Shown: piece after piece, positions 8,789-54,387 of the stretch
Layout of the letters: each line of letters opens with the position of its first letter
Position numbering within the stretch: the stretch's first letter is position 1
Assembly (NCBI GenBank): GCA_041661625.1
Contig: JBAZUB010000002.1
Span: 28,059 to 92,058 of the forward strand
Length of the DNA stretch: 64,000 nt
DNA from: Patescibacteria group bacterium
GTDB lineage: Bacteria > Patescibacteriota > Patescibacteriia > JAHIZJ01
Direction of reading: 5' to 3'
The notes under the pieces: generated by a model
Seen by the model: only the letters and a program-made list of their open reading frames with translations
What the model was told of the DNA's origin: nothing
Database searches by the model: none
Made by a program: the position numbers and the translations under genes

Positions 8789-8866
8789 TTCGCGGCCAGG
8801 TTTGAGTCAATGAGGAATTGACCGTACACCGACCGCAGGGTTCATTGAAAACATAGGAGGAACACC

Positions 8867-19521: not shown

Positions 19522-21122
19522 CGATTTATTTCTGCAAATGCTCTCAGTACTGCAGATATTGTGGCATCAAGATCCTCCCTATCTAACCCGGGGTTTACAT
19601 AGAGATTAAATAGCCGCTTGGTGACCTCTTGGGATACCGGACAATCATTTACGTGTGAGCTTTTTAACAACTCCACTTCGGGCAGAGACAGCGGGTAAAG
19701 CTTTTTTATCGGGATTCCTAATTGCATTACCCGATTAAGAAACATATCACGCTTCTCTATCAGGCCTGCTGGCAGTAATCCAGTCAGGTAAAAATAGGCG
19801 TGTTCAGAATTTGGATCTGTTTTCTGAAAAGTGATTCCACTTCCCGCTATCTTTTTCTGCAGATAATTTGCATTATTTCGGCGTATTTGATTATTGACAT
19901 CAAGCCGTTTATTTTGCTCAATAGCAATCGCGGCCTGAATATCTGTAAGTTGGTAATTAAAACCCAGGCGATTATAGTCATACGCATCCAGATCTTCTTG
20001 ATTGATGCCATTATTTGCGTCCGAACGTATATGGCTGTAGTACTTTTCATTATTTGTGGCTATTAAGCCACCCTCCCCGCAAACTATATGTTTCGTTTGA
20101 TAAAGACTTGTGCAGATGATGTCACCATACGAACCAACGTACTTTCCATTATATCTCGCGCCCGTAGCTTGGGCGCAATCCTCTATCAGCACTAACTTAT
20201 GTTTATCGCAGATTATCCTCAGCGCGTTCAAATTGACTGGCTGACCATACATATGGACAACGATAACTGCCTTAGTGTGCTTGGTGATTTTCTTTATAAC
20301 GTCTTTGGGATCAATATTAAAAGTTTCAGCCTCAATGTCAGCGAATATCGGTTTCGCTCCAACTTGTAATACCGTTGAGCAATCCGCAATATTGGCCAGT
20401 GCGGGGACGATCACTTCATCGTTGGATTGAAGATCTAAAGCAGAAAGAGCAAGATGTAGCGCGGATGTACCAGAATTGACGGCATTGACAAAACGCTGTG
20501 ATAACATACGAGATATCACATCTTGAAATTCGCGGACTACTGGACCTCCTTCCGGTCTCGATAATATTCCGGAATGTAGCACTCGTACAACAGCCTCGGT
20601 TTCTTCGTCGCCGATCAGATGCGCATTTATTTTTTGCATCATTTGAGCAATATGCGCTTTGGCATCGTTGTTATCCGGTTGTTTACTACTATAGTGTTCA
20701 TGAATCATATCTCGGACTGCGTTTGGCCGAAGTTCATAGTTTCTGATATCGACAACATCAATCCAGACTAACTCATAGGTACCCACATAATGAGTTCCGT
20801 ATTGATACTCGGGTCCGAAAGCATTTCCCAGAATGCCACCCGTTATTTCGCAAAGAAAAAATAATTCAGTCTGACCCAGTGTGTCTGGATGTCCCGACGA
20901 TTGCTTAGTAAATAGCTCTTTTACTCTTATGTCCACACCAAGCTCTTCGTGGCACTCTCTCTGAACGGCTTGTTCTGGTGTTTCATTATTGTCGACTCCT
21001 CCGCCAGGAAATACCCAGTATGCCTCTTGTCCGGGTTTGGTTCTTTTTATAACTAACACGTGGTTTTGATGGATTATCACCGCTCGCGCTCTTAATTTAT
21101 CCTTCGTTTTTTGATTCGTCAT
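19518..21122 (-). CDS. fusion protein: N-terminal Nudix hydrolase + C-terminal DegT/DnrJ/EryC1/StrS PLP-dependent sugar aminotransferase
   Basis: 534 aa; Nudix box GGGVDNNETPEQAVQRECHEELGV; DegT motifs AVNSGTSALHLAL, VIVVHMYGQP, IEDCAQATGA, TKHIVCGEGG. Confidence 0.8.
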   Translation of the reverse strand: MTNQKTKDKLRARAVIIHQNHVLVIKRTKPGQEAYWVFPGGGVDNNETPEQAVQRECHEELGVDIRVKELFTKQSSGHPDTLGQTELFFLCEITGGILGNAFGPEYQYGTHYVGTYELVWIDVVDIRNYELRPNAVRDMIHEHYSSKQPDNNDAKAHIAQMMQKINAHLIGDEETEAVVRVLHSGILSRPEGGPVVREFQDVISRMLSQRFVNAVNSGTSALHLALSALDLQSNDEVIVPALANIADCSTVLQVGAKPIFADIEAETFNIDPKDVIKKITKHTKAVIVVHMYGQPVNLNALRIICDKHKLVLIEDCAQATGARYNGKYVGSYGDIICTSLYQTKHIVCGEGGLIATNNEKYYSHIRSDANNGINQEDLDAYDYNRLGFNYQLTDIQAAIAIEQNKRLDVNNQIRRNNANYLQKKIAGSGITFQKTDPNSEHAYFYLTGLLPAGLIEKRDMFLNRVMQLGIPIKKLYPLSLPEVELLKSSHVNDCPVSQEVTKRLFNLYVNPGLDREDLDATISAVLRAFAEINR

Positions 21123-27750: not shown

Positions 27751-27884
27751 CCAGCAGATATTGCTGGCGCCGGTAAATCACAAAGCCCGCCGCCAGCGAT
27801 GACCTTTCGGCCACCTGCACCCCTTTCGGGATACAACCACTGCTGGTGCTCTGACGACGAGCCCAATATCCAGCAGTGGTTTTT
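27751..27884 (+). ncRNA. candidate small structured RNA (GC-rich islet ending in intrinsic terminator ccactgctgg..ccagcagtgg+TTTTT)
   Basis: GC-rich hairpin-dense ~135 nt in AT-rich intergenic region; 10-bp stem + U5 at 27837-27884. Confidence 0.25.
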
Positions 27885-27993
27885 GTACCATGCCACGGTT
27901 TGCGCCGTGGTTTAGGCACCAAATTGTAAGTAATTCCCTAATATCGGAATTACCTATATAATTGTACTATATTTTGTCGACATTTTCAATAAT

Positions 27994-29582: not shown

Positions 29583-29765
29583 ATGGAATTTCTTACTAGA
29601 GATGAGGTAGCCAAATACTTCAGGGTGCACCCCCGTACGGTTATGCGCTGGCTCAAACAGGGCAGTCTTAGGGGCTACAAATTAGGCACAGGTAAAACCG
29701 CCCTACTTCGCATATCCAAGTCCGAGATTGAAAGATTTATGGAAAAATCTAAGATCACAAAATGA
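29583..29765 (+). CDS. excisionase-family helix-turn-helix DNA-binding protein
   Basis: 60 aa; LTRDEVAKYFRVHPRTVMRWLKQGSL matches HTH_17/Xis family; 4-nt overlap with recombinase start. Confidence 0.7.
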   Translation: MEFLTRDEVAKYFRVHPRTVMRWLKQGSLRGYKLGTGKTALLRISKSEIERFMEKSKITK

Positions 29766-31513
29766 ACTCTACTGCTGACAAACAAGTTAAGCTGATCGCC
29801 ACGTACGCGCGTGTTTCAACGTCTCATCAGGAGGAACAACAAACGATACAAAACCAGTTAACCGCACTGCGTGAGTTTGCCAATAAGAATAATTACACGA
29901 TAGTCGAGGAATACACAGATGATGGCTGGAGCGGCGATATGCTGGCTAGGCCATCGCTTGATAAGCTTCGTCAGGATGTAAAGAACAAGATTTGGGAAGC
30001 GGTGCTTATTTATGACCCCGATCGTCTAGCTCGTCGTTACTCATATCAGGAGCTGGTAATGGATGAGTTGCGGGAAGCTGGAATTGAGGTAATGTTCATT
30101 ACCGTTACTGCTCCCAAAAACGACGAAGATAAGATATTGCACGGAGTAAGGGGTTTGTTTGCCGAATACGAGCGGGCGAAAATATCGGAGCGTTTCCGTC
30201 TCGGTAAACTTCGCAAGGTCAAAGAGGGGCATATTTTGGTGAGCGAGCCACTGTATGGCTATAACTATATTCCCAAACAAGACGACCGGCACGGCTACTA
30301 TAAGATCAACCCGGAGGAAGCGCGCGTTATCAAAATGATATTTTCGTGGGTAGCAGACGAAGGTTTGACCATTAGAGCGGTAATCAGAAGGCTACAGGAA
30401 ATGGGAATAAAGCCGCGCAAGAGCAAACGAGGAGTTTGGAGCACCAGCACATTGAGCACGCTGTTACGCCACCGTGCGTATATCGGCGAGGAACACTGGG
30501 GGAGTTCCTACGCGGTGGTTCCAGACAATCCGCTCAAGCACGAAAAATATAAGAAGATGAAGAAAACTAGTCGTCGGAAAAAGCCTAAAGAGGAATGGTT
30601 TACTATACCTGTACCCGCAATTATAAAAGCAGAAGTGTTTGAGAAAGTAGGGCGGCAGCTACAAGCAAACTATACTTTTTGCCAGCGTAACAAGAAGAAC
30701 GAATATTTACTGTCTGGTAAAATAGAGTGTGCTTGTGGGAGAAAACGGGCAGGAGAAGGCGCTTTGCAAGGTAAGCACCTATACTATCGTTGTGCTGACA
30801 GGGTTTACAGTTTTCCACTGCCTCATAAATGTAGAGAAAAAGGCATCAATGCCAGAATAGCTGACGATCTGGTATGGCAGAAAATAACAAAGCTAATGAC
30901 TTCGCCGGAGCTACTTTCTCAGCAGGTCAGTCGCTGGTTTAAGAGTAGGCAGGATAAATCTCAAGCGGCATTCGTTGACGTTGATTCGCTTAAAGGGCAG
31001 GTTGAGAAGCTCAAGGGGCAGGAGGAGCGTTATAACAAAGCCTACGGCGCGGGAGTGTTCAATCTGGAACAGCTTAAGGAGTACACGTCTCCCATTAGGG
31101 AAAAGATCGGTCAGATCGGTAAACAGATAATTGGCGCTAACCGTGAAGCCAACAGAATACAGCTAGAAGTGCCCGATCAGACCGAGATGGTATCATTCAC
31201 CCAGAAAGCAAGAACGACGTTACAGGACTTGAATTTTGAGGCAAAAAGGGCGATAATATTGAACACGGTCGAAAGAGTTGTAGGTACAAAGCAGAATTTA
31301 CAAGTATTCGGATATATTCCAATCACTCAAAATGTCTCATTCAACACTATCGGTCGGTATAGTCGGGCTGCCAAATGTCGGGAAATCCACCCTCTTCCAG
31401 GCGCTGACCAAAAAACAAGTCGATACTTCAAACTACCCTTTTGCCACTATCGATCCGAACGTAGGCGTGGTAGCCGTGCCCGACGCACGGTTAGACGCAT
31501 TGGCCAAGTTTAG
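29762..31513 (+). CDS. large serine recombinase (resolvase catalytic domain + recombinase domain + zinc ribbon + coiled coil)
   Basis: N-term LIATYARVSTSHQ..., AVLIYDPDRLARR; Cys pairs C..C and C..C; ORF continues 180 nt into ychF in another frame so true 3' end uncertain. Confidence 0.8.
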   Translation: MNSTADKQVKLIATYARVSTSHQEEQQTIQNQLTALREFANKNNYTIVEEYTDDGWSGDMLARPSLDKLRQDVKNKIWEAVLIYDPDRLARRYSYQELVMDELREAGIEVMFITVTAPKNDEDKILHGVRGLFAEYERAKISERFRLGKLRKVKEGHILVSEPLYGYNYIPKQDDRHGYYKINPEEARVIKMIFSWVADEGLTIRAVIRRLQEMGIKPRKSKRGVWSTSTLSTLLRHRAYIGEEHWGSSYAVVPDNPLKHEKYKKMKKTSRRKKPKEEWFTIPVPAIIKAEVFEKVGRQLQANYTFCQRNKKNEYLLSGKIECACGRKRAGEGALQGKHLYYRCADRVYSFPLPHKCREKGINARIADDLVWQKITKLMTSPELLSQQVSRWFKSRQDKSQAAFVDVDSLKGQVEKLKGQEERYNKAYGAGVFNLEQLKEYTSPIREKIGQIGKQIIGANREANRIQLEVPDQTEMVSFTQKARTTLQDLNFEAKRAIILNTVERVVGTKQNLQVFGYIPITQNVSFNTIGRYSRAAKCREIHPLPGADQKTSRYFKLPFCHYRSERRRGSRARRTVRRIGQV

Positions 31514-32396: not shown

Positions 32397-33032
32397 ATGG
32401 GTATCAATCGCACAATAGCAGCGTATGACAAATACGCTGAAATCTACGATCAGGAGACAATTGAATTTTGGGAAAAGTTCCCACGATCTGTAATTGCGGA
32501 ATTCGTTAAATTATTACCAGGCAAGAGAGTGTTAAATCTCGGTAGCGGGCCCGGGCGGGACGCTTTACTTTTGCGTGAGGCCGGTTTGGATGTTCTATGC
32601 GTTGACGCATCCACCGAAATGGTGAGGAGAACCCAAGATCTGGGCTTCGAGTCGATATCGTCTGATATTACCGCACTAGATTATCCAGATGATGAATTCG
32701 ATGGCATTTGGGCATACACCTCGCTGCTTCATGTGCCGACCGATAAAATGATAACTCTATTGCATCGGACGCGAAGCTGGTTGCGAATACACGGCGTGTT
32801 ATTAATAGGTATGATAGAAGGAGAATTTCAAGGAGAAATAACCCGGGACAATATGCCAAACATGAAACGATATTTTAAATATTATCAAGAATCGGAATTA
32901 ATCGAACTGATATCTCAAGCCGGATATGAACTACGTTATCAGGAGCGATATCAGCCGCACCGAAAAGTCTACCTAAATCAGATTTATATGAAGTCGGCTA
33001 AAGCACCCCACATATCGTTCCATAGCATATAA
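32397..33032 (+). CDS. class I SAM-dependent methyltransferase
   Basis: 211 aa; motif I VLNLGSGPGRDAL, motif post-I LCVDAS. Confidence 0.7.
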   Translation: MGINRTIAAYDKYAEIYDQETIEFWEKFPRSVIAEFVKLLPGKRVLNLGSGPGRDALLLREAGLDVLCVDASTEMVRRTQDLGFESISSDITALDYPDDEFDGIWAYTSLLHVPTDKMITLLHRTRSWLRIHGVLLIGMIEGEFQGEITRDNMPNMKRYFKYYQESELIELISQAGYELRYQERYQPHRKVYLNQIYMKSAKAPHISFHSI

Positions 33033-33049
33033 CCTGGTTGAATTTGCCC

Positions 33050-33392
33050 ACTTCACTCAGATTGATGTACACTAATAATGGACAGTATCGGAATGTCCAC
33101 CTTCAAAATCAGGCGGCTCTCATGAGGAGGGGCGCTGTTTTGTTTGCACAGTAGCACGGGGGTACTGATGGCATTCAAACCGACCACGGTTCGAAAGTCC
33201 CAGCGGGCATTGGGACTACGGCAACGGCAATTCCGCACCAGGAAGGATCCTGGTCGGGAAGCGAGAAAACCGGGATACCGCCTACAGTTTGTGCAACACA
33301 ATATCAGGCGGATGCGCCTGTCCGGCCCGCATCCAGCCTTGCAACGTCTCTAGCGGGATTCTCAACAGTCGGTGCTCCGATCGCCGACTTTT
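33050..33392. ncRNA. unassigned GC-rich structured region between convergent genes; candidate ncRNA (weak RNase P-like motifs GAAAGUCC, GUGCAACA on + strand)
   Basis: ~340 nt with many local hairpins (e.g. GUCCCA..UGGGAC, CCAGG..CCUGG, CAGGCG..CGCCUG), no credible ORF; identity not established. Confidence 0.25.
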
Positions 33393-34688
33393 CTATTTGT
33401 GCAGAGTCATCACATAAATCTCGCGACCGACTCGTTGGCCGGGGCGGTGATAGAGCAATGGATTCTTACCCGCCCAAGCCGGGAATGGCAGTAACTCAAA
33501 ACCCAGTCGCCGCATCGGTTCGTTCAACGGCAACCGTGTTACGGTTTGATTTTGAAACCAACATGGCACCACAAGGGCGATTCGTCCGCCCGCCCGGAGT
33601 ACTTTTTGAAACTGTTCCAGCGTTCGGGTAAAAAGACCGGTAAGTTCCACGCGGACTTTTTCCAATGCGGCCCGATTATGCGATAGTCGGGTAGGACCCA
33701 AATAGGGTTCGGTGACAATCACATCAATCGTGTTTGGTGCCACATATTCGGACAGCTGGGTGGCGTCGTGCATTTCTATTCGAATGCCGACCGAATCTTT
33801 GGGTGATTGTTCTTGCAGCCAATGGATATTTTTGGTCGTGGCCTGGATGGCTTTAGAACTGGTATCAAAGCCGATCAGATTTTTTATGCCCAGCAAATAA
33901 GCTTCTTGCAAAACCGTACCGGACCCGCAAAATGGATCGAGTAAGGTAGCTATGCTGGGCGCCCGTGTCAGGTTAATCATTATTTGGGCCAGTTTGGGGG
34001 GCAGCATACCCTGAAGCATGTCGCGTCCCGGCCGTCCATAATCCCGTCGGCCGTATGCCTCAAAATCTTGGACCGCTTCAGTCCGGCCAACCAAAACATT
34101 TTGTCCGCGGATAATTAACACGATCTCGCCGCCATTCTCGACCAAATTATTCTTAGTGACGCTTACGGACGATAGGGTTGGTTCGTTGTGATTCGCAAAC
34201 CGGCCGGCGTAACCTGCCATGCGCAGCTCCTTCTTCACTTCCATGCCTAATCGAACCACGGCTTGGCTATTGAATCCTTTTGTCTCGCCATAGACGCTAA
34301 TACCAAACGTCACCTTATCGGACAAAACCAGCAAACCAGTGTCGAATATCCCTTTGGCCAGTGTCGCGGTTAATTGCTTGATGGTGGTTTTCAAAATAAT
34401 CCGGCCCACTTTTATCGTACCGCCCAGCCGGTTCATGAGGTGATCCAGCTGGATCGCTCCAGAACCAGAAATAACCAGCGCCTGGCCGCATAGAGTCGGC
34501 GGTGTGTTTGGATCGATTTGGTCGTTCAAACAAACCGCGATTTCGGCGGCAGAAAGAGCGATTTCTCGGCCCAAAATAAAGAAATAATGGTACTGAGACG
34601 GCGGGTTTGGTTGAGCGGGTTGAGGGCTTGCCATGATTGTCTTATTATGATACAGTGGTTTGGCAATACAAAGGGTCATTTCTGACAC
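33393..34688 (-). CDS. RNA methyltransferase, THUMP-like N-terminal domain + class I SAM MTase (Trm14/RlmL-like)
   Basis: 431 aa; DPFCGSGTVLQEA motif I, VVTEPY motif IV-like; alternative start at MASPQP (34634) plausible. Confidence 0.6.
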   Translation of the reverse strand: MSEMTLCIAKPLYHNKTIMASPQPAQPNPPSQYHYFFILGREIALSAAEIAVCLNDQIDPNTPPTLCGQALVISGSGAIQLDHLMNRLGGTIKVGRIILKTTIKQLTATLAKGIFDTGLLVLSDKVTFGISVYGETKGFNSQAVVRLGMEVKKELRMAGYAGRFANHNEPTLSSVSVTKNNLVENGGEIVLIIRGQNVLVGRTEAVQDFEAYGRRDYGRPGRDMLQGMLPPKLAQIMINLTRAPSIATLLDPFCGSGTVLQEAYLLGIKNLIGFDTSSKAIQATTKNIHWLQEQSPKDSVGIRIEMHDATQLSEYVAPNTIDVIVTEPYLGPTRLSHNRAALEKVRVELTGLFTRTLEQFQKVLRAGGRIALVVPCWFQNQTVTRLPLNEPMRRLGFELLPFPAWAGKNPLLYHRPGQRVGREIYVMTLHK

Positions 34689-36536: not shown

Positions 36537-36615
36537 GGCAAGTAACATGTAATAAACAAAGAAGCTCCTAATACGGGAGTTTTTGAAATTTGAGTAATAA
36601 GATACACAACAAGCA

Positions 36616-36662
36616 CGTAGGCGGGCAAACCCCCTACCGATTCTGGTACGGGGCCGCCTACG
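36616..36662. terminator. extended nested hairpin between convergent efp and recA (cgtaggcgg...ccgcctacg enclosing cccctacc..ggtacgggg)
   Basis: 9-bp outer and 8/9-bp inner inverted repeats read directly. Confidence 0.45.
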
Positions 36663-36687
36663 GATGTTGTATTGCGTACGGCTAACT

Positions 36688-37719
36688 TTATTTTACGTCC
36701 ACTGTTGTGGGAAGCACTTCCTTGGCTTTTAGAATAACCGCGTTTTGGATCTCATCCATCAGCTTTGGGTCATTCTTGATTGTCTGTCGGGCAGTTTCGT
36801 GGCCAACACCCAGCTTGGTTTCACCAAAGGCGTAGGAATTACCATTCTTGGCAATGACATTCAGTCTGATGCCGGTGTCGAGAATATCACCCGATCGTGA
36901 AATGCCCTCATTGTACATGATATCAAATTCGGTGGTACGGAATGGCGGAGCCACCTTGTTTTTTACCACCTTGGCTTTGACGCGGTTTCCGACCACCTCT
37001 TCATTTTGCTTAAGCTGGGCGGCGCGTCGAACCTCAACGCGGATTGAAGAGTAAAACTTCAATGCGTTGCCACCGGGTGTGGTTTCTGGGTTGCCAAACA
37101 TGACGCCGATTTTCATCCGGATCTGATTGATGAAAATCACGATGGTATTTGACTTGCTCATGATGCCAGCCAGCTTGCGCAATGCCTGGCTCATCAGACG
37201 CGCCTGAAGACCCATGTGAGAAGCACCCATCTCCCCTTCAATTTCCGCCTTTGGAGTCAACGCAGCGACTGAATCAATCACGATGATATCGAGCGAATTG
37301 GAGCGTACCAATGTCTCGACAATTTCCAACGCCTGTTCGCCGTTGTCCGGTTGTGAAATTAACAGTTGGTCGATGTTTACACCCAAGCGCTTGGCGTAAT
37401 CGGGATCTAAGGCATGTTCAGCGTCGACGAATGCCGCAACGCCCCCCAATCGCTGAGCTTCGGCGATAGCGTGCAAAGTCAGGGTGGTTTTTCCGGACGA
37501 TTCCGGTCCATAAACCTCAATGACCCGGCCGCGCGGGAATCCGCCCACACCTAAAGCTAAATCGAGCGATAGACACCCGGATGAAATTGCCTCAACGTTC
37601 ATCTTTTTTGCCTCGCCCAGGCGCATAATCGCGCCATCGCCGAACCGTTCCTTGATCTGGTCAACGGCTGATTGGGCTGATTTGATTTTGTTGTAGGTTT
37701 CTGTAGGCTTCTTTGGCAT
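36688..37719 (-). CDS. recA: recombinase RecA
   Basis: 343 aa; [10 protein letters not shown] Walker [10 protein letters not shown], canonical RecA throughout. Confidence 0.95.
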
Positions 37720-42973: not shown

Positions 42974-45900
42974 TTATTCTATCTTAGGAGCTTGTCTGAA
43001 AGCGGTTCCAGCCGGGATTAATTTACCGATGATGACATTTTCTTTCAAACCGCGCAGCCGGTCGACTTTTCCAGAGACAGCCGCTTCAATCAACACCCGA
43101 GCGGTTTCTTGGAATGAAGCCGCAGACAGGAAGCTGTCGGTCGAAAGCGAGGCCTTGGTGATACCGAGCAGCAGGTCTTCGCTAACAGCCCGTTTATCGC
43201 TGACCTTGAGTTTCCGATTGGCTTCGGCCAGCTCGCTCAAAGTGACAATTTCACCGGCCAGCAGATCGGTATCGCCGGCGTCTTTAATATAAACGCGGGA
43301 AAACATCTGCTTTACGATTACTTCAACGTGCTTATCGTTCAATTTTTGTCCCTGCGATGAGTAGATGAATCTAATTTCCCGGATGACATATTTTTGAGCC
43401 GCTTCTTTACCCTTCAGTTTGTATAATTGATGCAAATCAAGGCTGCCGTCGGACAATTGCTGGCCCTTAGCGACCAGATCATCATCTTTGACCCAGAGTG
43501 AGTAGCCAACCGGTACAGGATATTCCCGTTCCTGCTGGCCGGTAGTGGTTACCCGGATCTCGTCATCAACTATGTTGGCGATACCATCATCATGCGTAAT
43601 CGCCTTGTCTTTTCCCATGGCCCAAAGCAGGTCGCCTTTTTTTACCGATTGGCCGTTTTTGACCATGACTTTTAGTTCTGGCGAGGTTTTGGGATCATCG
43701 GGCAAAGGATATGTTTCGGTGATCGGTTCGTTGGAGGTCAGCTTGAGAGTAATCTGTTTGGCTTGTTTAAGCAGGCTGACTTTGCCGCCGACTTCGGCAA
43801 TCAGAGCCGGTTTCTTGATTGGCCGAGCCTCAAATAATTCTTCCACGCGGGGCAAACCTTGGGTAATATCCAGACCAGCGACACCGCCAGTGTGGAAGGT
43901 ACGCATGGTCAGCTGGGTGCCCGGTTCACCGATGCTTTGAGCGGCAATGATACCAACGGCGGTGCCGATCGCTACGGGCTTATTATAGCCCAGATCGTGG
44001 CCGTAGCATTTTTGGCAGACGCCGCGAATAGTCTGGCAGTTCATAACCGATCGAATTTGAACCTCTGAGATTTCCAGCCCCTTCAGTTTTCCGATTAGTT
44101 CTTTGGTAACCAATGCCCCGGCGGAAATAAGCACCTTGCCGGTTTTGGGATGTTTGACATCGGAGATCGTATAGCGGCCGTAGATGCGGTCGGTCAGCTC
44201 CTCGCCCATGTCCTTGCATTCCGCTTGGGTAATGGTGAGGCCAATGTTATCGCCGCAATCTTCTTCAACCACCACCACGTCCTGTGAGACATCAACCAGG
44301 CGGCGGGTCAGGTAGCCGGCGTTAGCGGTTCTCAAGGCAGTATCTGATAAGCCTTTGCGGGCGCCGTGTGTCGAGATAAAGTATTCCAGCACGTCGAAAC
44401 CTTCTTTGAAATTTCCCTTCACCGGCAGCTCGATAATATCGCCAGCCGGGTTGGTGACCAAGCCTTTCATGCCCATCATTTGGGTAGCTTGGGCCCAGGT
44501 GCCGCGAGCGCCGGATTCAATCATGGCAAATACCGGACCCTTAGGATCGAGCGCTTGGCTGCTTTCTTTGGTCACTAGCTCTTTGGCGTGATCCCAGGTT
44601 TCGATAATTTTATTATGACGCTCTTCGTCGGTCAGTAAGCCCGATTGATAATGAGATTCGATTTCGTCGGCTACTTTTTCAGCGTCTGATATGATCTCAT
44701 ATTTACGTTTCGGTATTGGCAAGTCATGCATACCCCAGCTCATACCAGATTGGGTGACATATTTGAAGCTAAGTGCCATGACCGCGTCCAGATATTTTAC
44801 AGTCATGTCCGATCCAAACTCTTCCAGGATGTGGCTGGTCAAGATCCGCAATTCTTTTTTATCCAGTGTCTTGTTTACAAACTCCAAATCCTTGGGCAGA
44901 ATCTGATTGAAAATAATCCGACCGGCGCTGGTCACGATTATCTTATTGTCTATTTTGACTCGAATCAGCTCCTGCAGTTTGATGTATTCGAGGCTATAAG
45001 ATAGTATCGCTTCGTCGGAATGGCAGAACGACTTGATATGGGTCGTGTCGATATTAGCCTCATCGTGAATATAGGTCAGATAAAAACAGCCCAAAACGAT
45101 ATCTTGGTTTGGCATCACGATTGGCTCGCCGGTAGCAGGCTTGAGTAGGTTCTTATCGGCGCGCATTAACTCGGCCGCTTCCTCTTTAGCCTTGACGGTC
45201 AGGGGAACGTGTACGGCCATTTGGTCGCCATCAAAGTCTGCGTTGAAAGCGGTACAAACCAACGGATGAATCTGAATGGCCTTGCCTTCGATCAAGACCG
45301 GTTGAAAGGCCTGAATACCCAGCCGGTGCAAGGTGGGGGCGCGATTGAGCAGCACATTCGAATTCTTGGTGATCTCTTCCAGGATATCCCAGACCTCGGC
45401 GCGGTTGGATTCGATAAACCGGCTGGCCGAGCGGACGTTGTGAACATATTCGCGCAGAATCAACTGGCTGATCACGAAGGGCTTGAATAATTCCAAAGCC
45501 ATGCGCTTGGGCAGGCCGCATTGATGCAGGTGCAAGCGGGGACCGACCACGATGACAGAACGACCGGAATAGTCAACGCGTTTACCGAGTAGGTTTTGCC
45601 GGAAACGGCCCTGTTTGCCCTTGAGAATATCGGCAATCGATTTCAGCATGCGTTTCTGGCCGGTGGAGGCGGTGACAGTCTTGCCATGACGGGCGCTGTT
45701 GTCAATTAAAGCATCGACGGCTTCCTGGAGCATGCGTTTCTCATTGCGGCAGATGACCTCGGGAGCATTCAATTCCAGCAGCCGCTTCAAACGATTGTTG
45801 CGATTGATTACGCGCCGATATAGATCGTTGAGATCGGACGCCGCAAACCGTCCGCCATCCAGTTGCACCATTGGTCGCAGGTCAGGCGGTATCACCGGTA

Positions 45901-46828
45901 AAGCAGTCAGAATCATCCATTCCGGTCGGATATTATTCTTCTTCAAATTGTGCACCAACTTCAATCGGCGCACCAGCTTGCGTTTGCGGTTTAAGGACGC
46001 GGTACGCATCTCGGTCTCGAGCTCGGAAATCAGCCCATCCATATCAATCACGTCGAGCAGGTGACGGACCGCTTCGGCGCCGATGCTAGCCTCGAAGACA
46101 TGGCCGTACTTGAGCGATAAGTCTTGATAAGTGCTTTCCGAGATTATTTGCAATCGTTTCAGGCTGCGCAGTTCCTTGCGGGCCAATTCAACTAAGGCGT
46201 CCAACTCCTTGATCTGTTCGTCTTTGAGCTTGGCATTGGCGGCCAATTCATCGGCCAGCATCTTCTCGTCGGGTTTGCTGGCATGGCGCTGGCGGGTTTC
46301 GTTGGCCAGGCGATTGAAGTTATTCTCAATCTGTTTTTTCTTCGATTGGCCCTCGCCGTCGATTTGCTTCAGGCTTTCCTGGCGCAGGTCCTCGTCGACC
46401 TTGGTAATAATAAAATTGGCGAAGTAGATAACCTTCTCAAGCTCCTGGGCGGATAGATCAAGCACTAGGCCGATCTTGGATGGCACGCCGCGGAGAAACC
46501 AGATGTGTGAAACCGGCGCGGCCAGATCGATATGACCCATGCGCTCACGGCGGACGATACTGCGGGTCACTTCCACGCCGCATTTGTCGCAAATAATGCC
46601 CTTGTAGCGAATCCGCTTGTATTTGCCGCAGTAACATTCCCAATCCTTAGATGGGCCAAAAATCTCTTCGGCAAACAAGCCGTCTTTTTCCGGTTTCTGA
46701 GTGCGGTAGTTGATGGTTTCCGGTTTGGTTACCTCGCCGTACGACCATTTGTGGATGTCGTCAGGAGAAGCCACCTTTAACCGGATGGCCCGGAAGTCCG
46801 GACTCTTCGATTCGTCTTGGTGGGGCAT
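42974..46828 (-). CDS. rpoC: DNA-directed RNA polymerase subunit beta'
   Basis: 1284 aa; zinc-binding CYCGKYKR...CDKCG, NADFDGD catalytic motif, canonical beta' throughout. Confidence 0.97.
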
Positions 46829-46836
46829 ATAGTATG

Positions 46837-49800
46837 TTACTTCTTGTTCTTGGACTCTCGTTTTTTAGGCTCAGGTTCAGGCGGCGTTTCAACCGGCGCC
46901 TCGATATCGGCCGACGTTTCAATTTTTTCCTGAATCGGCTGACCGTCGGAACCGAGCAGCTCAACGTCCAGCGCTAAACCTTTTAACTCCCGGACCAAGA
47001 CATTGAAAGATTCCGGGATGTTGATTTTATTGATTGGTTCGCCTTTGATAATCGCTTCATAAGCCTTGGAACGGCCGGGGACATCGTCGGACTTGATGGT
47101 CAGCATTTCTTGCAGAGTGTGCGCGGCACCATAGGCCTCGAGCGCCCAGACTTCCATTTCACCGAACCGCTGTCCGCCGAACTGGGCTTTACCACCGAGC
47201 GGCTGCTGGGTGACTAATGAGTATGGACCGATCGAACGCTGGTGAATCTTGTCTTCCACCAAGTGATTCAGTTTGAGCATATAAATGTAGCCGACGGTAA
47301 CTTTTTGATCGAACGGCCGACCGGTTCGCCCGTCGTAGACTGAAACCTTGCCATCTTCGGGCAAACCCGCTTTTTTCAATTCTTCCCGAATTTGAACGTC
47401 GGACATGCCATCGAGTGTCGGGGTGGCGACTTTATAGCCCAGCTGATGGGCGGCAAAACCGATATGCGTTTCCAAAATTTGACCCAGGTTCATACGGGAG
47501 ACGACGCCCAATGGGTTGAGTATAATATCGACCGGGCGGCCATCCTCGAGGAAGGGGAGATCTTCAGTGGCAACGATGCGGGAAATAACACCCTTATTAC
47601 CATGGCGGCCGGCCAGTTTGTCGCCTACCTGGACCTTGCGCAATTGAGCCACCGACACTTGGATGGTCTTAATCACGCCGGCGGGCAGTTTGTCGCCAGT
47701 TTCCTTGGAAAATATCTTAATATCAACGACTTTGCCGTGTTCGCCATGTTCGAGATAAAGCGAGCTGTCTTTGACGTCTTTGGCTTTTTCACCAAAGATG
47801 GCGCGCAATAACTTTTCTTCGGCGGACAGTTCGGTTTCACCTTTGGGAGTTATTTTACCGACTAGAATGTCGCCAGATGAAACCTCGGCGCCGATTCGAA
47901 CCACGCCCTCTTCATCCAGGTCTTTTAGTTTCTCTTCGCTGACATTCGGTATGTCGCGGGTAACTACCTCCGGACCTAATTTAGTATCGCGTACGTCTAC
48001 CGAGTAGTCTTCAATGTGTATGGAACTAAAGACATCGTTCTGAACCAAACGTTCCGACAGCAGAATCGCGTCCTCATAGTTGCCGCCGTCCCAGGGGATG
48101 AAGGCTACCAGCACATTTTGACCTAGTGCTAACTCGCCGTTTTCGGTCGAAGCGCCGTCGGCAATGACATCGCCAGCCTGTAATTTTTGGCCGACATCAA
48201 CCAGTACGTGTTGATTCATGCAGGTGGCCGCGTTGGACCGGACAAAGTTGCCCATCGGATAGACTTGAGTCGTGCCATCATCGGCCAACACCTGGACTTC
48301 CGAGGCCTGGCACTTGATCACGCGGCCGGGCTTGGTGTTCAGCACCACATGACCGGAATCCCGGGCGGCGCGCGCTTCCACGCCGGTGCCGACGATCGGC
48401 GCCTGGGGACGGATGCAGGAAACAGCCTGACGTTGCATATTGGTACCCATCAAGGCGCGGGTAGCGTCATCATTTTCCACAAACGGGATCAGGGAAGTGG
48501 CCACGCTAATGATCTGATTCGGGGCGACGGCCATTAAATTGATTTGTTCGGTGGGGACTATGGCCGGCTCGCCGTGTTTGCGGGCTTCGGCGCGGTCAAA
48601 GGCGAGGTTGTTATATTCGTCGACCGGCGTGGTGGCGGCGGTGGAGATGTATCGCTCTTCTTCAAAAGCGTCCAGATACACCAGCTCATCGGAAACGTGC
48701 GGCCGAATAGCGATCATGGACTGGCCATTGCTGGCGATATGCTCAGCCACCTCTTTGGTAATCAGTTCGCCCGCCTTAGTAATTACCTTACCTTGGGCAT
48801 CGGTAATATTTTCCCGGGCGATACGATTGACGGTTTTGGACGGTTTATTCTCAATTTCGTTGTAGATTTTGCAATACGGTGTTTCGATAAAACCAAAGTC
48901 ATTCACCCGCGCGTAGGTGGTCAAGTGGCCTACCAAGCCGATATTCGGACCTTCGGGAGTGGCGATCGGACAGATACGGCCATAGTGCGTGCGATGCACA
49001 TCGCGGACGTCGAAACCGGCTCGTTCGCGCGATAACCCGCCGGGACCCATGGCGGACAAGCGGCGCTTGTGTTCCAATTCCGCCAGGGGATTGGTCTGAT
49101 CCATGAACTGGGACAGCTGCGAAGACATGAAGAATTCCTTGACCGAACCCATCACCGGACGGGCATTGATCAATTGGCTTGGCGTCAGGGTATTCACGTC
49201 CATCGTACTCATGCGGTCGCGGATAATGCGTTCCATGCGGGACAGTCCGACGCGGAATTTGTTCTGGACCAATTCACCGATGGCGCGGACGCGGCGGTTG
49301 CCCAAGTGGTCGATATCATCGGCTTCCCGCTGGGTATTGTTCAAATCGATGATTTCTTTGATAATTGAAACCAAATCATCAATCCGTAAGATGCGCGTCT
49401 CTTTATTATTGGGGATATCAAAACCGAAGCGCTGGTTGATCTTGTAGCGTCCCACTCGGCCGAAGTCATAGCGGTCAAAAGAGAAGAACATCTTGAAAAT
49501 CAGCTCGCGGGCATTGTCGACCGTAGCTAAATCGCCCGGGCGGATGCGTTTGTAGACTTCCTTTAAGCCTTCGGCTTCCGAACGAGCCGCGTCCTTTTCG
49601 ATCGTCTTCGTAATATACTGGACATCGGGGTTGGCGTCGGCGCCTTCAAACAGTTTCTTGAGCTCCTCGTCGCTCCCGACCCCAAAAGCGCGCAGCAAAC
49701 TAGTGATCGGTACCTTCCGTTTGCGATCGATCTTAACAATTATTACGTTGTTGTAATCGGTCTCTAGTTCAAGCCAGGCGCCGCGGTTGGGGATGATCTT

Positions 49801-50271
49801 GGCGCCGTAGTAACGGCGGCCGCGATAGAGCTCCGAAGTAAAAAACACTCCGGCTGATCGGATCAGCTGGGATACTACGACGCGCTCAATGCCATTGATA
49901 ATGAAGGTGCCGCGGTCAGTCATCAACGGAAAGTCGCCCAAATAGACCTCTTGTTCCTTGATTTCACCGGTTTTCTTGTTGACCAGTCGGCAATTGACCC
50001 GGAGAGCGGCCTCATAGGTCAGATTCTTGGCTTTGGCCGTATTTTCGTCGAATCTGGGCTCATCCAGGTAGTAATTCTCGAAGTATAACTCAAGATTCCG
50101 GCCAATATACTCTTGGACGGGTGAAATCTCTTCAAATAGCTCTTTTAACCCCTCACGAAAAAACCAGTCATACGACTTGCGCTGGATTTCGATCAGATTG
50201 GGTAACGATATTGCTTCGCGCAGGGGCTTAAAGTACTTGCGCTCCTGCCTTTTAGTATGCAATTGAGACAT
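46837..50271 (-). CDS. rpoB: DNA-directed RNA polymerase subunit beta
   Basis: 1144 aa; canonical beta subunit blocks (e.g. [38 protein letters not shown]). Confidence 0.97.
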   Translation of the reverse strand: [1144 protein letters not shown]

Positions 50272-50379
50272 AAAACTCCACCCTCTCCCGTGTCGCCAGC
50301 CAGGAGACGGGGTATGAATCTATAAAATTGGCTCAATTTCGCCTGAAAAACCCTATATTTACGCCTAACATGTAAATTG

Positions 50380-50408
50380 ATGATAACACAAAAAACCAAG
50401 TTGTCAAC
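50380..50408 (-). promoter_or_regulatory. Candidate rpoBC promoter on minus strand (TTGACA-17-TATCAT with upstream TG)
   Basis: Hexamers read on reverse complement ~110 nt upstream of rpoB start. Confidence 0.45.
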
Positions 50409-50532
50409 ATATACGGTTCAGGGTGTCAAAAACGTACTAAAAAAACCTAATATTAGCCAATTAGTTGAAATTTTTGGCTAACGGTAAATAAAATGAACAC
50501 TTTATTGTGCACAGTCAATAGACAAGTTATCC

Positions 50533-50578
50533 ACAGTTATTATTTAGAAAATGAAACCAGGCTCATATGTGAGCCTGG
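50533..50578 (-). terminator. Rho-independent terminator after giant gene A (ccaggctca tatg tgagcctgg + TTTCATTTTCT on minus strand)
   Basis: 9-bp stem, U-tract; 34 nt downstream of gene A stop. Confidence 0.6.
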
Positions 50579-50611
50579 AGACATATTTTCTAGCAGATAT
50601 TGCAGCAAATA

Positions 50612-53600
50612 CTAACGCAATTCGTATTTCATGTAATAGGCCGATACGATCTTCTGCTTGATCAGACGCCCCGAAAGGTTAAGACAGGGCATATATGCGT
50701 AACACGTACCCCGATATTTATCACCACTGGCGCAGATATTAACATATGTATTATCAATACAAACCTGGCTTGGCGTGTCGCTATAGGGGTAATCCGGGTC
50801 TACCAGATAGGCCGCTCCGGTGCAGGATCCATTAAGATAGTAATTGGTGCCATACGCATCAGCCGAAACCTCGGTAGAATTGGGCGGACAAATCAATCCA
50901 CCGGCTGCATATGCCAAACTGCTAGAAATGGCGGAGCCGGTATCGTACCAGAATTTAACGCCGGTTGCCGTGTTGTCTCTGGTGGTGCCGGTGGTATAGA
51001 TATAACGCCCGAGGCAGACATCGGTACCGATTTCGCAGACACTTATCGAAACCGGCTTATCGCGACCTTGAAGTATCAGGTGGTTAGGAATACCGACCTT
51101 GCCGGAAAAAGTCGCTGCCCATCCGGTGCCGTCCTGTTGAGCGTACAGGGCCGAGCCCGACGCATTATTGGCATATATGCCCAACCCATCATTAGCATTG
51201 CCCGTGTTTGATGATCCAGCATTGATAGTTAACTTGGCATTGGGTCCGGTTTGTCCAATGCCGACCTTGCCGGTTCCGGTTATGTTTAGATCGCTTCGAC
51301 CCTGTGTTCCGAGCGACAGTATTTTATTTTCGTAGGAACCCACGTAGGCTTCTCCGGTGCCCGCTATGGAAATTTCCAGCCCGTCCCCGGCCGTTTGTCC
51401 GGTGTTCGTATTTTGCAGCAGCAGTACCGTGGGTGAGGCCGTGTCTTTGTACATATTCAGGAGAGACCTAGGAGTTGTTGTGCCCACGCCAACATTACCG
51501 CCCGTGAGAATAGTGATTCGGTCTTCGTTGCCACTACCATTTGCTAAGCGCAGGTCATTGCCGGCAGTGTACACACTGGCATAACCGGCCGCCGGCTTGA
51601 ACTTCAATAAACTGCCGGTGGTGCTAAACTGTATGTTGCCGGCAACGGTAAGTTTCTCGGTCAGGGTAGCGGTGCCAATGCCTACGTTGGTTCCATTATC
51701 AAATATTTGGGAGTCGCCCAGTGTGGTGCCGGCCGTGAATTTTGGTAAATAGTTGATTGTGCCCGAACCACCAATTCCGCCGCCACCCAGGTCGTCAGTT
51801 TCGCATGTCACCGACCCGTCAGCCGCGATTGCTCTAATCGAACTGCCGGCCGCGCAATCGGAAAAATATTTGGTCGTGCCATCCAGCTTGTATATGCTGC
51901 TCGCTATCGCTAAGCCGCCGCTATTGTTCAAGCGCAGATACTCGACACCGCCCTTGTAGAATCTAATCCCCTCCTTGCCTTCGATGGTCAGCGCTTGATT
52001 TGGCGTAAGATTGCTGGCGACTCCAATTAGACCGATTCGATCAGTTGTCATGCCGCCAATGATGAGCGCGTCAGCATCAGATCGCGCGCTGACTTGGCCC
52101 GAGAAGTACCCCGCATAACCAGCCGCGTTAGTCTGCTCACCGTAGATGGCCGCGTTAGCCGAATTGTTTTTTACCGATAGTTGCGTTGAATCACCAATAT
52201 TATTATGCCCAATTGCCACCTTGTCAGTCGCCTCATTGTTGGGATTGATAGTGTTGGCGCTGGCACCGGCTTCCCAGAGGCTAGACCCTCCAGCTATGGC
52301 CCAAGAGAGATTGCCCGAGCCATCGTTCTTTAAATAGGTACCTACACCACCCTGCGCATTTGGCCAAGAGTAGGTAATGTTTCGTAATTTAATGATATTG
52401 CCCGTGGAGTCGACCTGGAACTGGTGGCTGCTGCCGACCGTGAGAAGGGAAGTGGGGGCGGTATCACCAATGCCAACATTGCCGCCGGTCAAAATAGTGA
52501 TACGGTCTTCGTTGCCATTACCATTAGCTAGGCGCAGATCAGTGCCGGTGGTATATATGCTGGCGAAACCGGCGGTCGGTTTAAATTTCAGTAAACCGCC
52601 GGTTGTACTTAGTTGAATGTTGCCTGCTATGGTAAGCTTTTCAGTCATCGTGGTGGTTCCAATGCCAACATTGCCATTCATCAAGGCGGTTCGCCCCGAG
52701 AAGTAACCGGCGAACCCCGCGGCGTTCAGCTGTTCAGCATAAATTGCCGAATTAACAGAATTATTATAGGTGGCGAAAGCGGTCAGATCACCCTCGGTTG
52801 CTTGACCTACCCGGACCTTGTCATCGATCTCGGCCGGATAAACACTGTTAACGCCATTATGCGTCCAGAGAGTGTTGATCTGCAATCGATGATTCCCGCC
52901 CCCGACATTAATTTCCTGAGTCCAGATGCCGGTGCCGTTAACTAATTCGCTGCCGAGATATTCTGGAGTAGCATCTGCCGCGCTAGTCATGACCATGAAA
53001 GTGTCAGAACCAGCCGCACCGAAATCGTCGAATTCACAGGTTACGGTGCCATCAGCCGCGATGGCTCGGATAGAATTGCCAGCCGCACAGTCCGCAAAAA
53101 ACTTGGTTGTGCCGTTCAGCTTGTACAGTCCACCCGACATAGCCAAGTCGCCGTCGATACCCAGCTCTTGATTTGGGCTGACGGTATTGATACCCATCCG
53201 GCCTCCCATAACAACGGTTTTACCAGAAAAATATCCTGCATACCCATTGGCGTTAGCTTGTTCGAAATATCCTGCGGCATTCAATGAGCCGTTCTTCACG
53301 GATAATTGCGTCGAATCACCAATATTATTGTGCCCAATTGCCACCTTGTCGGTCGTCTCGTTAATCGGATTGATCGTGTTCGCGGTCGCGCCGGCTTCCC
53401 AGAGGCTGGCGCCCGCACCCTGATCGACGCCACAGAAAAGATTGCCATTGGCGTCGACGTCGACCGTGTTATTTCCGGTGCAGCCTGTGAGGCCGGGGAT
53501 TCTGATGGTGCCATCTCCGAGTATGCGCATTCGCTCAGCAAAAGCGCCGGTGTTCGTAGTGAAGAAAATCATGTCAAAGGTGTTGGATCCGAGTTGCCGC

Positions 53601-54349
53601 TCGACCGCAATCCGGCCGTTCGAACCATCCGGCCCCCAGGGGAATCCCGCCGAACCGCCAAAGCGCCAGTCGATACCCATGGCGTTCGAACCGTTGTTAT
53701 CCAAACTATCGATGGTAAACATAGACTTGTAGCCGACCACGCTCGCTCCAACGGCCAGTGGCGCGCTGGGATTGTTTGTGCCAATGCCGACATTCCAGCT
53801 CAAGTTGGTGGGATACAGATTCGCGCCAACCTGGGTCCAAAAACCGCCACCTCCGCCACCCCCGCAACCCAACGTTCCCTCGTTGTCCGTGCTGACACCG
53901 CCGCAACCGGCACCGCCATTGATCAGATTCTGCACGGATAGTTGGCCCACATTCGCTCCAGCCTGAGAGATTTTTACTTTACCTTGCAGTTCAATGTGAT
54001 CACCTATGTCGCCGGGTGAAACATAGAGCGTGTTGGCGCCGAAGTTAATATGCGGTTTGGCCAAGTCGGCGCCATTAAACCAAAAAATACCAGTATTGTC
54101 GTACGGTATGTACAGGCTACCGGATGAAACGCTCAGGAATTCCCCCGCCACGGTCAATGAGCCATTCTTTGTTTGAGGTGAAGACGAGGTATTGATCGGC
54201 GCGGCGACATTGCCCCCCGGCGGTGCACTTTCGGGAGGAGACCAAGCCGCTAGCGCTTGGCCAACCGGTGCCGATAATGCCACGCACAAGAGCACCGGCA
54301 TGACCATTAGGTACACCAGCTTTGAGCCACGGAATAGATTTGATTTCAT
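50612..54349 (-). CDS. giant secreted repeat protein (paralog A), phage tail-fibre-like repetitive modules
   Basis: 1245 aa; signal peptide MKSNLFRGSKLVYLMVMPVLLCVALSAPVGQALA; shared N-terminal module with B and D; Gly/Asn/Thr-rich repeats. Confidence 0.8.
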   Translation of the reverse strand: MKSNLFRGSKLVYLMVMPVLLCVALSAPVGQALAAWSPPESAPPGGNVAAPINTSSSPQTKNGSLTVAGEFLSVSSGSLYIPYDNTGIFWFNGADLAKPHINFGANTLYVSPGDIGDHIELQGKVKISQAGANVGQLSVQNLINGGAGCGGVSTDNEGTLGCGGGGGGGFWTQVGANLYPTNLSWNVGIGTNNPSAPLAVGASVVGYKSMFTIDSLDNNGSNAMGIDWRFGGSAGFPWGPDGSNGRIAVERQLGSNTFDMIFFTTNTGAFAERMRILGDGTIRIPGLTGCTGNNTVDVDANGNLFCGVDQGAGASLWEAGATANTINPINETTDKVAIGHNNIGDSTQLSVKNGSLNAAGYFEQANANGYAGYFSGKTVVMGGRMGINTVSPNQELGIDGDLAMSGGLYKLNGTTKFFADCAAGNSIRAIAADGTVTCEFDDFGAAGSDTFMVMTSAADATPEYLGSELVNGTGIWTQEINVGGGNHRLQINTLWTHNGVNSVYPAEIDDKVRVGQATEGDLTAFATYNNSVNSAIYAEQLNAAGFAGYFSGRTALMNGNVGIGTTTMTEKLTIAGNIQLSTTGGLLKFKPTAGFASIYTTGTDLRLANGNGNEDRITILTGGNVGIGDTAPTSLLTVGSSHQFQVDSTGNIIKLRNITYSWPNAQGGVGTYLKNDGSGNLSWAIAGGSSLWEAGASANTINPNNEATDKVAIGHNNIGDSTQLSVKNNSANAAIYGEQTNAAGYAGYFSGQVSARSDADALIIGGMTTDRIGLIGVASNLTPNQALTIEGKEGIRFYKGGVEYLRLNNSGGLAIASSIYKLDGTTKYFSDCAAGSSIRAIAADGSVTCETDDLGGGGIGGSGTINYLPKFTAGTTLGDSQIFDNGTNVGIGTATLTEKLTVAGNIQFSTTGSLLKFKPAAGYASVYTAGNDLRLANGSGNEDRITILTGGNVGVGTTTPRSLLNMYKDTASPTVLLLQNTNTGQTAGDGLEISIAGTGEAYVGSYENKILSLGTQGRSDLNITGTGKVGIGQTGPNAKLTINAGSSNTGNANDGLGIYANNASGSALYAQQDGTGWAATFSGKVGIPNHLILQGRDKPVSISVCEIGTDVCLGRYIYTTGTTRDNTATGVKFWYDTGSAISSSLAYAAGGLICPPNSTEVSADAYGTNYYLNGSCTGAAYLVDPDYPYSDTPSQVCIDNTYVNICASGDKYRGTCYAYMPCLNLSGRLIKQKIVSAYYMKYELR

Positions 54350-54378
54350 ATGGGAGTATTTTATATTAACCGGCTGAT

Positions 54379-54387
54379 ATTATACCA
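54379..54387 (-). promoter_or_regulatory. extended -10 (TGgTATAAT) candidate promoter for gene A
   Basis: Read on reverse complement 30 nt upstream of gene A start. Confidence 0.4.

Follow-up and report, generated by a model that had tools for sequence, protein, structure and literature searches.

Ribonuclease P (RNase P) RNA is a structured RNA of roughly 270-400 nucleotides (nt) that is expected to be present in all relatives, and its P4 helix is formed by two distal conserved regions, CR-I (..GAAAGUCC..) and CR-V. In bacteria of the Candidate Phyla Radiation (CPR), diverged RNase P RNAs were missed at default thresholds and recovered with lowered Infernal thresholds (Lui et al., PMC8172020). 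Here, we analyzed a 64,000-nt stretch of DNA from an uncultured Patescibacteria group bacterium (contig JBAZUB010000002.1; hereafter the window), in which a non-coding gap of 360 nt (33033-33392 in window coordinates) lies between two convergent methyltransferase genes, a plus-strand gene for a 211-amino-acid (aa) protein and a minus-strand Trm11-like gene. An earlier note on this DNA had proposed a structured RNA of unknown class or a gene remnant at this place. As far as the comparison with relatives reaches, the gap is not a conserved structured RNA gene. The reading we prefer, for which we hold the chances to be about even, is that the gap is an ordinary lineage-specific terminator zone together with what is left, in decayed or re-framed form, of a small ancestral gene. 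The RNA part of the earlier proposal was not borne out, and the remnant part gained some support from a 56-aa open reading frame (ORF) that stands in place in two related loci, L003 and L005, and from a weak alignment of the window segment with that of L003 (p ~0.01-0.02).

A consensus terminator scan returned nine sites in 2.6 kilobases (kb), compared with 2.6 expected, and these included T2, the stem of T1 (both plus strand), and H7 (minus strand). The three candidate terminators are as follows.

33104-33146, plus strand: T1, predicted intrinsic terminator for the ychF/211-aa operon, with an A-tract, a hairpin at 33112-33136 and a U-tract (GUUUUGUUUG)
33320-33295, minus strand: H7, terminator-like hairpin CAGGCG-CAUC-CGCCUG followed by AUAUUGUGUU, found in the terminator scan, -9.5 kcal/mol
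33367-33398, plus strand: T2, predicted intrinsic terminator AGUCGGUG-N7-CGCCGACU followed by UUUCUAUUUG, -10.9 kcal/mol, z score (z) -2.7 on the plus strand

In all three, a U-rich tract on the transcribed strand comes directly after a GC-rich hairpin, and each is located near a stop codon and oriented toward the incoming gene. The hairpin of T1 begins 80 nt past the stop codon of the 211-aa gene at 33032. Its folding energy on the plus strand is -17.0 kcal/mol, with z -3.07; the minus-strand form, in which two G.U pairs turn into A.C mismatches, is for that reason weaker, at -10.6 kcal/mol and z -1.55. H7 lies 73-98 nt downstream of the Trm11-like stop (33393), and its U-rich tail is found on the minus strand only. 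The hairpin of T2 (33367-33389) abuts and overlaps the Trm11-like stop codon, with the U-tract on the plus strand. A hairpin of the T2 type is located at the equivalent place in the three relatives whose Trm11-like proteins were the best matches in 5.8 billion clusters (L003, L004, and L005, with 66%, 63%, and 45% identity, the rest being at ~40%), with the T-run on the strand opposite the Trm11-like gene, and T2 is the sole helix common to the RNAalifold consensus of the three syntenic segments. By these modeled folds the three hairpins are ordinary intrinsic terminators, at which we infer that transcription ends. T1 would stop the ychF/211-aa operon arriving on the plus strand, H7 would stop the Trm11-like mRNA arriving on the minus strand, with the reversed T1 as a weaker back-up, and T2 would keep plus-strand transcription from entering the Trm11-like gene in antisense.

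The only part of the gap left unexplained by terminators is a central domain between T1 and H7, which contains hairpins at 33174-33195, 33196-33217, and 33231-33259.

33144-33296, either strand: central GC-rich domain, 153 nt, closed by an 8-base-pair (bp) helix (UUGCACAG/UUGUGCAA)

Of the four nearest relatives, two (L003 and the outgroup L005) have a small ORF convergent to the Trm11-like gene at the corresponding place.

L003 2524-2694, minus strand: 56-aa ORF of the form MPxxY(G)DPFPF..., starting MPVLYDPFPF
L005 6254-6424, minus strand: 56-aa ORF of the form MPxxY(G)DPFPF..., starting MPSTYGDPFPF

The two peptides matched each other in BLASTP with E = 8e-6, and their five DPFPF codons differed at synonymous third positions only, indicating selection at the protein level. 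Both ORFs read as having a good Shine-Dalgarno (SD) sequence, a sigma-70-like promoter, and a shared terminator. The source pipelines had left the ORF uncalled and it is absent from the protein database; a word-indexed protein search with the L005 peptide gave no match, and the MPxxYxDPFPF motif had no further occurrence in ~1 Mb of six-frame translation. A family of uncalled ORFs that, in a CPR clade, faces the Trm11-like gene in this way is a possibly useful by-product of the analysis. L003 and L004 share 72% identity. Since the outgroup is L005 (45-48% identical to the others), the small gene is taken to be ancestral to the clade that includes the window. At the L004 site there is instead an unrelated 160-aa ORF, of which no trace was found in the window. 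L005 also has ~320 nt (6530-6850) of GC-rich, apparently non-coding DNA with no Rfam match, located after the ychF stop and before the terminator and promoter that come ahead of the small ORF.

The window gap has an ORF that agrees with the MPxxYxDPFPF ORF in position, strand, length, SD-like run, and shared terminator.

33168-33353, plus strand: 61-codon ORF with an ATG start and GGGGG upstream; 69 codons if counted from a TTG start

The distance from the ORF start to the Trm11-like stop is 225 nt in the window, 226 nt in L003, and 221 nt in L005, and the lengths are alike (61 codons in the window and 56 in L003 and L005). A G-rich run is located 5-9 nt before the ATG, and the stop codon is 13 nt upstream of the T2 hairpin. 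When the DNA from the start codon to T2 was aligned globally, window against L003, p was ~0.008 with shuffles and 0.02 with natural GC-matched segments; this alignment is as weak as that of the demonstrably homologous L003/L005 pair. The window-L005 global alignment was not significant, and local alignment of the gap with the L003 and L005 gaps gave scores equal to those of shuffles. BLASTP gave no alignment of the 61-codon peptide with the L003 peptide, and none of the six frames of the gap contains the MPxxYxDPFPF motif. Taken together, the 153-nt stretch most likely descends from a 56-aa small gene that would have had its own promoter, SD sequence, and T2 terminator. In the window lineage the frame is still open, while the peptide motif, the promoter, and gene-like codon usage would have been lost, and T1 now stands in front. 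The activity of the terminator hairpins and the descent of the central domain from a small gene are both what we infer from sequence.

By homology and codon usage, the gap is non-coding. Two independent gene callers left it empty, and neither gap ORF had a match in Pfam or NCBIfam. The 61-aa ORF had no homologue among 1.84 billion representative proteins in a full HMMER search. The minus-strand ORF has 82 codons and the third frame is also open, and several open frames are expected at 57% GC. In line with this, the ORFs of 82 aa (minus) and 69 aa (plus) are short, overlapping, and on opposite strands, as the earlier note had described them. When we applied a codon-usage log-odds score trained on 30 long window genes, the 61-codon ORF scored -0.098, whereas 99.6% of the 61-codon pieces taken from real genes, and also 75% of spurious ORFs, scored higher; the minus-strand ORF scored -0.029, the median of spurious ORFs. 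The 61-codon ORF is thus probably not a functional gene here. A pseudogene of a neighboring gene was considered as well and rejected, as six-frame tblastn of the gap against 165 related loci and the window was negative.

These results bear on the alternative that the frame at 33168-33353 (plus strand) is a live gene for a fast-evolving, small basic protein of 61 aa, with GGGGG as an SD-like run and T2 as its terminator. The start distance, the similar length, the G-rich run before the ATG, and the placement of the stop codon relative to T2 would all fit such a gene, as would the C-terminal halves of the L005 and window peptides, which are both strongly basic. However, the N-terminal motif that was kept in the more distant pair L003/L005 is missing from the window, no similarity to the L003 peptide and no homologue among the 1.84 billion representatives were found, and the codon score is typical of spurious ORFs. 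Further, T1 lies directly upstream, a promoter-like site was not found, two gene callers passed the frame over, and 61 open codons at 57% GC have an estimated chance of ~0.1, with two other frames open over the same DNA. We therefore consider a live small protein gene unlikely and prefer a decayed or re-framed remnant.

The folding of the gap was compared with that of the window as a whole. Over its whole length, the gap gave a plus-strand z of -1.9 to -2.2 and a minus-strand z of -3.1 to -3.7; with a background of 360-nt windows at a mean z of -0.85 (sd 1.32, 5th percentile -3.0), this places the gap at about the 15th percentile on the plus strand and about the 3rd-5th on the minus strand. 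The best sub-window, 33144-33325, whose boundaries were picked post hoc, reached z -3.44 on the plus strand and -4.18 on the minus strand, and none of 200 shuffles folded as well. On the plus strand, the minimum free energy (MFE) structure of the central domain equals the centroid. When 182-nt windows were set out on an unbiased grid, 25 of the 1064 reached z -3.44 and 11 reached -4.18, and the on-grid window 33121 (minus strand) ranked 18th, in the top 1-2%. The gap thus folds only moderately better than expected by chance, without being extreme.

The GC content is 0.544 for the whole gap and 0.573 for 33100-33392, which confirms that this region is richer in GC than its surroundings (window mean 0.485, sd 0.063) and places it at about the 95th percentile of 300-nt bins. 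The gap is the GC-richest among the window intergenic regions of at least 200 nt, the others being at 0.33-0.51. Its length is not exceptional: elsewhere in the 64 kb, five gaps measure 290-410 nt and a sixth 940 nt. A consensus scan found no promoter-like site in 33080-33400 on either strand; the sole nearby one, at 33052-33079, with a 9/12 match, is located upstream of T1, and its invariant -10 T is lost in a related strain (L167).

A stable, GC-rich domain of this kind could be a lineage-specific structured small RNA (sRNA) or an RNA derived from the Trm11-like 3ʹ untranslated region, with 33144-33296 as the functional unit. It might arise by read-through of H7 on the minus strand, ending at the reversed T1, or from a plus-strand transcript ending at T2. 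The z values and shuffles of the best sub-window, the rank of 18 among 1064 on a grid where the one true Rfam RNA of the window, LOOT, reached -5.4, the GC content, the lack of a coding-looking ORF, and the bracketing of the domain by two terminators on each strand all agree with this alternative. Yet the sub-window boundaries were set post hoc, and ~10 other places in the 64 kb fold as well or better. Promoter-like sites are missing inside or just upstream of the domain on both strands, and no Rfam family matched even at E<=10. In addition, no counterpart was found in the syntenic L003, L004, and L005 or in the 99 related loci searched, and the L003 gap is not unusually stable. An sRNA therefore seems possible but doubtful, whether made by either route. 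That 33144-33296 is a new structured sRNA of a sparsely sampled Patescibacteria lineage, lying between paired terminators and replacing the ancestral small protein gene, is in our view rather unlikely; if true, it would add one lineage-restricted sRNA with no assigned function.

The comparison with relatives was made at several levels. Scans of genome and metagenome contigs with the Trm11-like protein gave only relatives at ~34-42% identity. When the gap was searched with blastn, nhmmer, and tblastn against 165 loci (0.96 Mb), the only match was in the related strain L167 (sample SRR29232677), which has 96% aa identity in the 211-aa gene, is ~93% identical at the nt level, and reaches no further than 68 nt into the gap. 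This part contains a further small hairpin.

33079-33099, plus strand: H1, hairpin UGGACA-N9-UGUCCA in the 3ʹ trailer of the 211-aa gene, -7.0 kcal/mol, z -1.9

L167 differs from the window by seven substitutions in the 47 nt before H1 and none in the 22-nt H1 hairpin, a difference that is not significant (p ~0.1). Near the 3ʹ end of the 211-aa gene (L167 1170-1190, window 33005-33032), L167 has a 1-nt insertion that alters the last residues and gives a 209-aa product.

For the central domain, we built a covariance model (R1) from the single sequence of 153 nt. It found only itself in 0.70 Mb (the window and 99 related loci), and with filters off it gave nothing above 8 bits in L003, L004, and L005. 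RNAalifold on the three syntenic segments gave a consensus of -15 kcal/mol with a covariation term of -0.33 and no shared structure save T2, and the L003 gap had no excess fold stability (z -0.4 and +0.2). Thus, the structured RNA of unknown class suggested earlier has no detectable conservation of sequence or structure in the syntenic regions of the closest relatives; as the nearest of these is 66% identical in the flanking protein, this absence of conservation has limited power.

The central domain is also bracketed by a direct repeat, located on the 5ʹ sides of T1 and H7.

33104-33116, plus strand: direct repeat copy 1, CAAAATCAGGCGG, on the 5ʹ side of T1 (repeat search)
33299-33311, plus strand: direct repeat copy 2, CAATATCAGGCGG, on the 5ʹ side of H7 (repeat search)

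Written as the degenerate 13-mer CAAWATCAGGCGG, the repeat has mismatch-free copies only at 33104 and 33299 in the 64 kb. One explanation is that a segment of ~182 nt (33117-33298) was inserted into an ancestral minus-strand terminator (CAAAAUCAGGCGG|AUGCGCCUG...), with duplication of a 13-nt target; the segment would be like a miniature transposable element, with 7-bp terminal inverted repeats TTGCACA/TGTGCAA. The agreement of the two direct repeats at 12 of 13 positions, the perfect 7-bp inverted repeat at 33144-33150 and 33290-33296, the clean terminator that would be restored by removing the segment, and the variability of the Trm11-like/ychF junction between genomes are consistent with such an event. 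However, a 12/13 match within 600 nt has an estimated chance of ~0.1, about 1 in 10, and the inverted repeats do not adjoin the left direct repeat, 27 nt lying in between. No second copy of the segment was found in the window, and none in phage, plasmid, or viral collections: the gap had no match in phages or plasmids, and its 22-nt hairpin had none in viral contigs. An insertion would also be at odds with the finding that the window ORF and the relatives' small ORF agree in position. We consider an inserted element very unlikely, both as a target-duplicating event and in its miniature-transposable-element form.

Several observations nevertheless weigh against a terminator zone with a small-gene remnant. 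Homology of the L003 and window segments is weakly supported (p ~0.01-0.02), and the power to establish non-conservation is limited, since the nearest relative is just 66% identical in the neighboring protein. A streamlined genome should by now have lost an old relic that has no function. The frame of 61 codons remains open, and a G-run resembling an SD sequence stands at the ancestral start position, which could mean a live, fast-evolving small protein. The central domain might instead stem from an insertion or duplication, as suggested by the 13-nt direct repeats on either side of it. Finally, the central domain is among the top 1-2% most stable 182-nt windows with its MFE structure equal to the centroid, and the gap is the GC-richest long intergenic region of the window; a stable fold, agreement of MFE and centroid, and high GC are the very properties used for picking candidate non-coding RNAs (ncRNAs).

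The note had also seen echoes of conserved RNase P RNA in two plus-strand motifs, which we take to be similar to stretches of the Escherichia coli M1 RNA.

33193-33200, plus strand: motif GAAAGUCC, in the 5ʹ arm of the local hairpin 33196-33217
33291-33298, plus strand: motif GUGCAACA, 3ʹ arm of the 8-bp helix closing the 153-nt domain

Both words turned out to be arms of local helices, and neither is a conserved RNase P region. GAAAGUCCCA (33193-33202) pairs with UGGGACU 8 nt downstream, and no other complementary stretch was found in the gap, so that no P4 helix could be formed, in keeping with the note, which had not assembled a convincing one. Searches with Rfam 15 gave zero matches in the gap at the gathering threshold, zero on either strand at E<=10 when 651 nt (32900-33550) were searched, and zero in the gap at E<=5 when the whole window was searched, indicating that a structured RNA of known class is not present at any of the three stringencies. 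ARAGORN found no transfer RNA (tRNA) or transfer-messenger RNA (tmRNA) gene in the window (0 genes), in agreement with Rfam and with the earlier note, which had seen no tmRNA T-arm or CCA end.

With no Rfam match even at E<=10 and a blank ARAGORN result, RNase P RNA, tmRNA, 6S RNA, signal recognition particle (SRP) RNA, and riboswitches were rejected. For tmRNA, neither a tRNA-like domain nor a tag frame was found (ARAGORN 0, Rfam none); for 6S, SRP, riboswitches, and any other Rfam family, no covariance model matched at the three stringencies. As for a tRNA T-arm, GGTTCGAAA (33188-33196) is T-loop-like, but the bases on either side fail to pair. A diverged RNase P RNA, or another housekeeping RNA (tmRNA, 6S, SRP), might still be missed by standard models, as CPR RNase P RNAs may score under Rfam thresholds (PMC8172020); the diverged RNAs of that study were recovered by lowered thresholds, though, whereas the gap stayed blank at E<=10 and E<=5. 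The two motifs echo M1 RNA, but GAAAGUCCCA pairs locally with no distal P4 partner in the gap. Moreover, at most 250 nt are available between T1 and T2, which is too short for an RNase P RNA, and Rfam gave nothing relevant on the syntenic L003, L004, and L005, which have no RNase P-like element. We find a missed housekeeping RNA scarcely credible.

All hairpins and motifs listed in the earlier note are present in the gap. Apart from the two motifs above, they are the following.

33197-33216, plus strand: hairpin GUCCCA-N8-UGGGAC
33238-33253, plus strand: hairpin CCAGG-AAGGAU-CCUGG
33305-33320, plus strand: hairpin CAGGCG-GAUG-CGCCUG, whose minus-strand form is H7
33325-33330 and 33353-33357, plus strand: GCCCGC...GCGGG, merely 5 bp enclosing a 22-nt loop

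The two genes that flank the gap do end facing it, as the ORF map and Pfam place the 211-aa gene on the plus strand and the Trm11-like gene on the minus strand.

32397-33032, plus strand: left flank, 211-aa class-I S-adenosylmethionine (SAM)-dependent methyltransferase (Pfam Methyltransf_25/11/23)
33393-34688, minus strand: right flank, 431-aa UPF0020/Trm11-like methyltransferase (Pfam PF01170)

The Trm11-like protein is 413-428 aa in the annotation of other callers, and its relatives are named tRNA (guanine10-N2)-dimethyltransferase or Trm11 by the Joint Genome Institute (JGI). The gene order is large serine recombinase, ychF, 211-aa gene (plus), gap, Trm11-like gene (minus), and rpsF, ssb, and efp (plus), and identical copies of the locus were found in a 26-kb Logan contig and a 268-kb European Nucleotide Archive (ENA) contig. 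The 211-aa gene begins 6 nt downstream of ychF in the same direction. In ~80 Patescibacteria genome loci, a convergent ychF-sized ORF within 0-130 nt was the commonest neighbor of the Trm11-like gene, so that the long gap here is a minority state, and the 211-aa gene and the long gap would be derived states of a variable junction. The 211-aa gene is a predicted lineage-specific insertion that splits an ancestral convergent ychF/Trm11-like pair.

About a quarter of the Patescibacteria genome loci (L007-L166) have 200-820 nt, or extra genes, inserted at the Trm11-like/ychF junction. The junction may be useful, as a by-product, as a variable insertion point in Patescibacteria. Upstream of ychF, a gene for a 583-aa large serine recombinase with Resolvase, Recombinase, and Zn_ribbon_recom domains is located at 29762-31513 (plus strand), and its 3ʹ end overlaps the longest ychF reading frame. 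An excisionase-like HTH_17 gene (L001 187-369) lies just upstream of it, and the two together suggest an integrated element adjoining a housekeeping block.

Elsewhere in the window, the sole Rfam family found in the 64 kb was a full-length LOOT RNA (RF03000) at 27798-27918 (minus strand), with 85.9 bits against a gathering threshold of 46.4 (E = 7.8e-15). The 293-nt gap that holds it is flanked on one side by the gene for a zinc-ribbon membrane protein and on the other by a 275-aa ORF that has no annotation. The strongest fold signal of the window was at 8641-8866 (plus strand; z -6.75 for 8641-8822 and -4.9 for the 226 nt), where a very long hairpin with a U-run behind it, and with no Rfam match, separates an HD-domain gene (with a 97-aa ORF) from an ABC transporter gene. 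Likewise, 7561-7892 (plus strand; z -5.9 and -5.3) had no Rfam match; it is a 309-nt divergent, AT-rich (GC 0.375) intergenic region between an Rrf2-family regulator gene (minus) and an HD-domain gene (plus). Further 182-nt windows with z <= -5.3 were found at 63001-63182 (plus), within a 378-aa ORF that has no Pfam match, at 19681-19862 (minus), within a NUDIX/DegT fusion gene, and at 36601-36782 (minus), at the convergent efp/recA junction, where it is probably a terminator. On the ORF map, five very large ORFs (1284, 1144, 1245, 1414, and 1311 aa) follow one another at 42974-62826 (minus).

The locus may serve chiefly as a calibration case, since a convergent gap that is GC-rich, dense in hairpins, and free of called ORFs looks like an ncRNA gene to the eye. 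Most of its ncRNA-like signal would come from three ordinary terminators and the remainder is unconserved. The gap itself carries little biological weight.

Compared with known systems, the gap shares with bacterial RNase P RNA (RNaseP_bact_a/b and the CPR forms of PMC8172020) only the two short echoes, GAAAGUCC and GUGCAACA, and it differs in having no model match and no P4, in being too short, and in being unconserved. It resembles the regions nominated as ncRNA candidates from GC-rich intergenic DNA (PMC5737381) in being long, GC-rich, non-coding, and of high predicted stability. Unlike LOOT RNA (RF03000), which lies 5 kb away and reaches 85.9 bits and z -5.4, it has no match, homologue, or covariation. 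With the MPxxY(G)DPFPF ORF of L003 and L005, the window ORF shares position, strand, start distance, length, G-rich run, and T2, whereas its peptide has no similarity or motif, it lacks a promoter and gene-like codons, and it is preceded by a terminator. Most relatives have a gap of 0-130 nt at this junction, while here there are three terminators plus a structured filler of 153 nt; and the U-tracts of H7 and T2, where termination is predicted from sequence, are interrupted, unlike those of typical intrinsic terminators. In their basic build, T1, H7, and T2 nevertheless agree with intrinsic terminators, with GC-rich stems of 6-9 bp, a U-rich tract behind each stem, and a location within 0-110 nt of a stop codon, and T1 has the A-tract/U-tract symmetry of bidirectional terminators.

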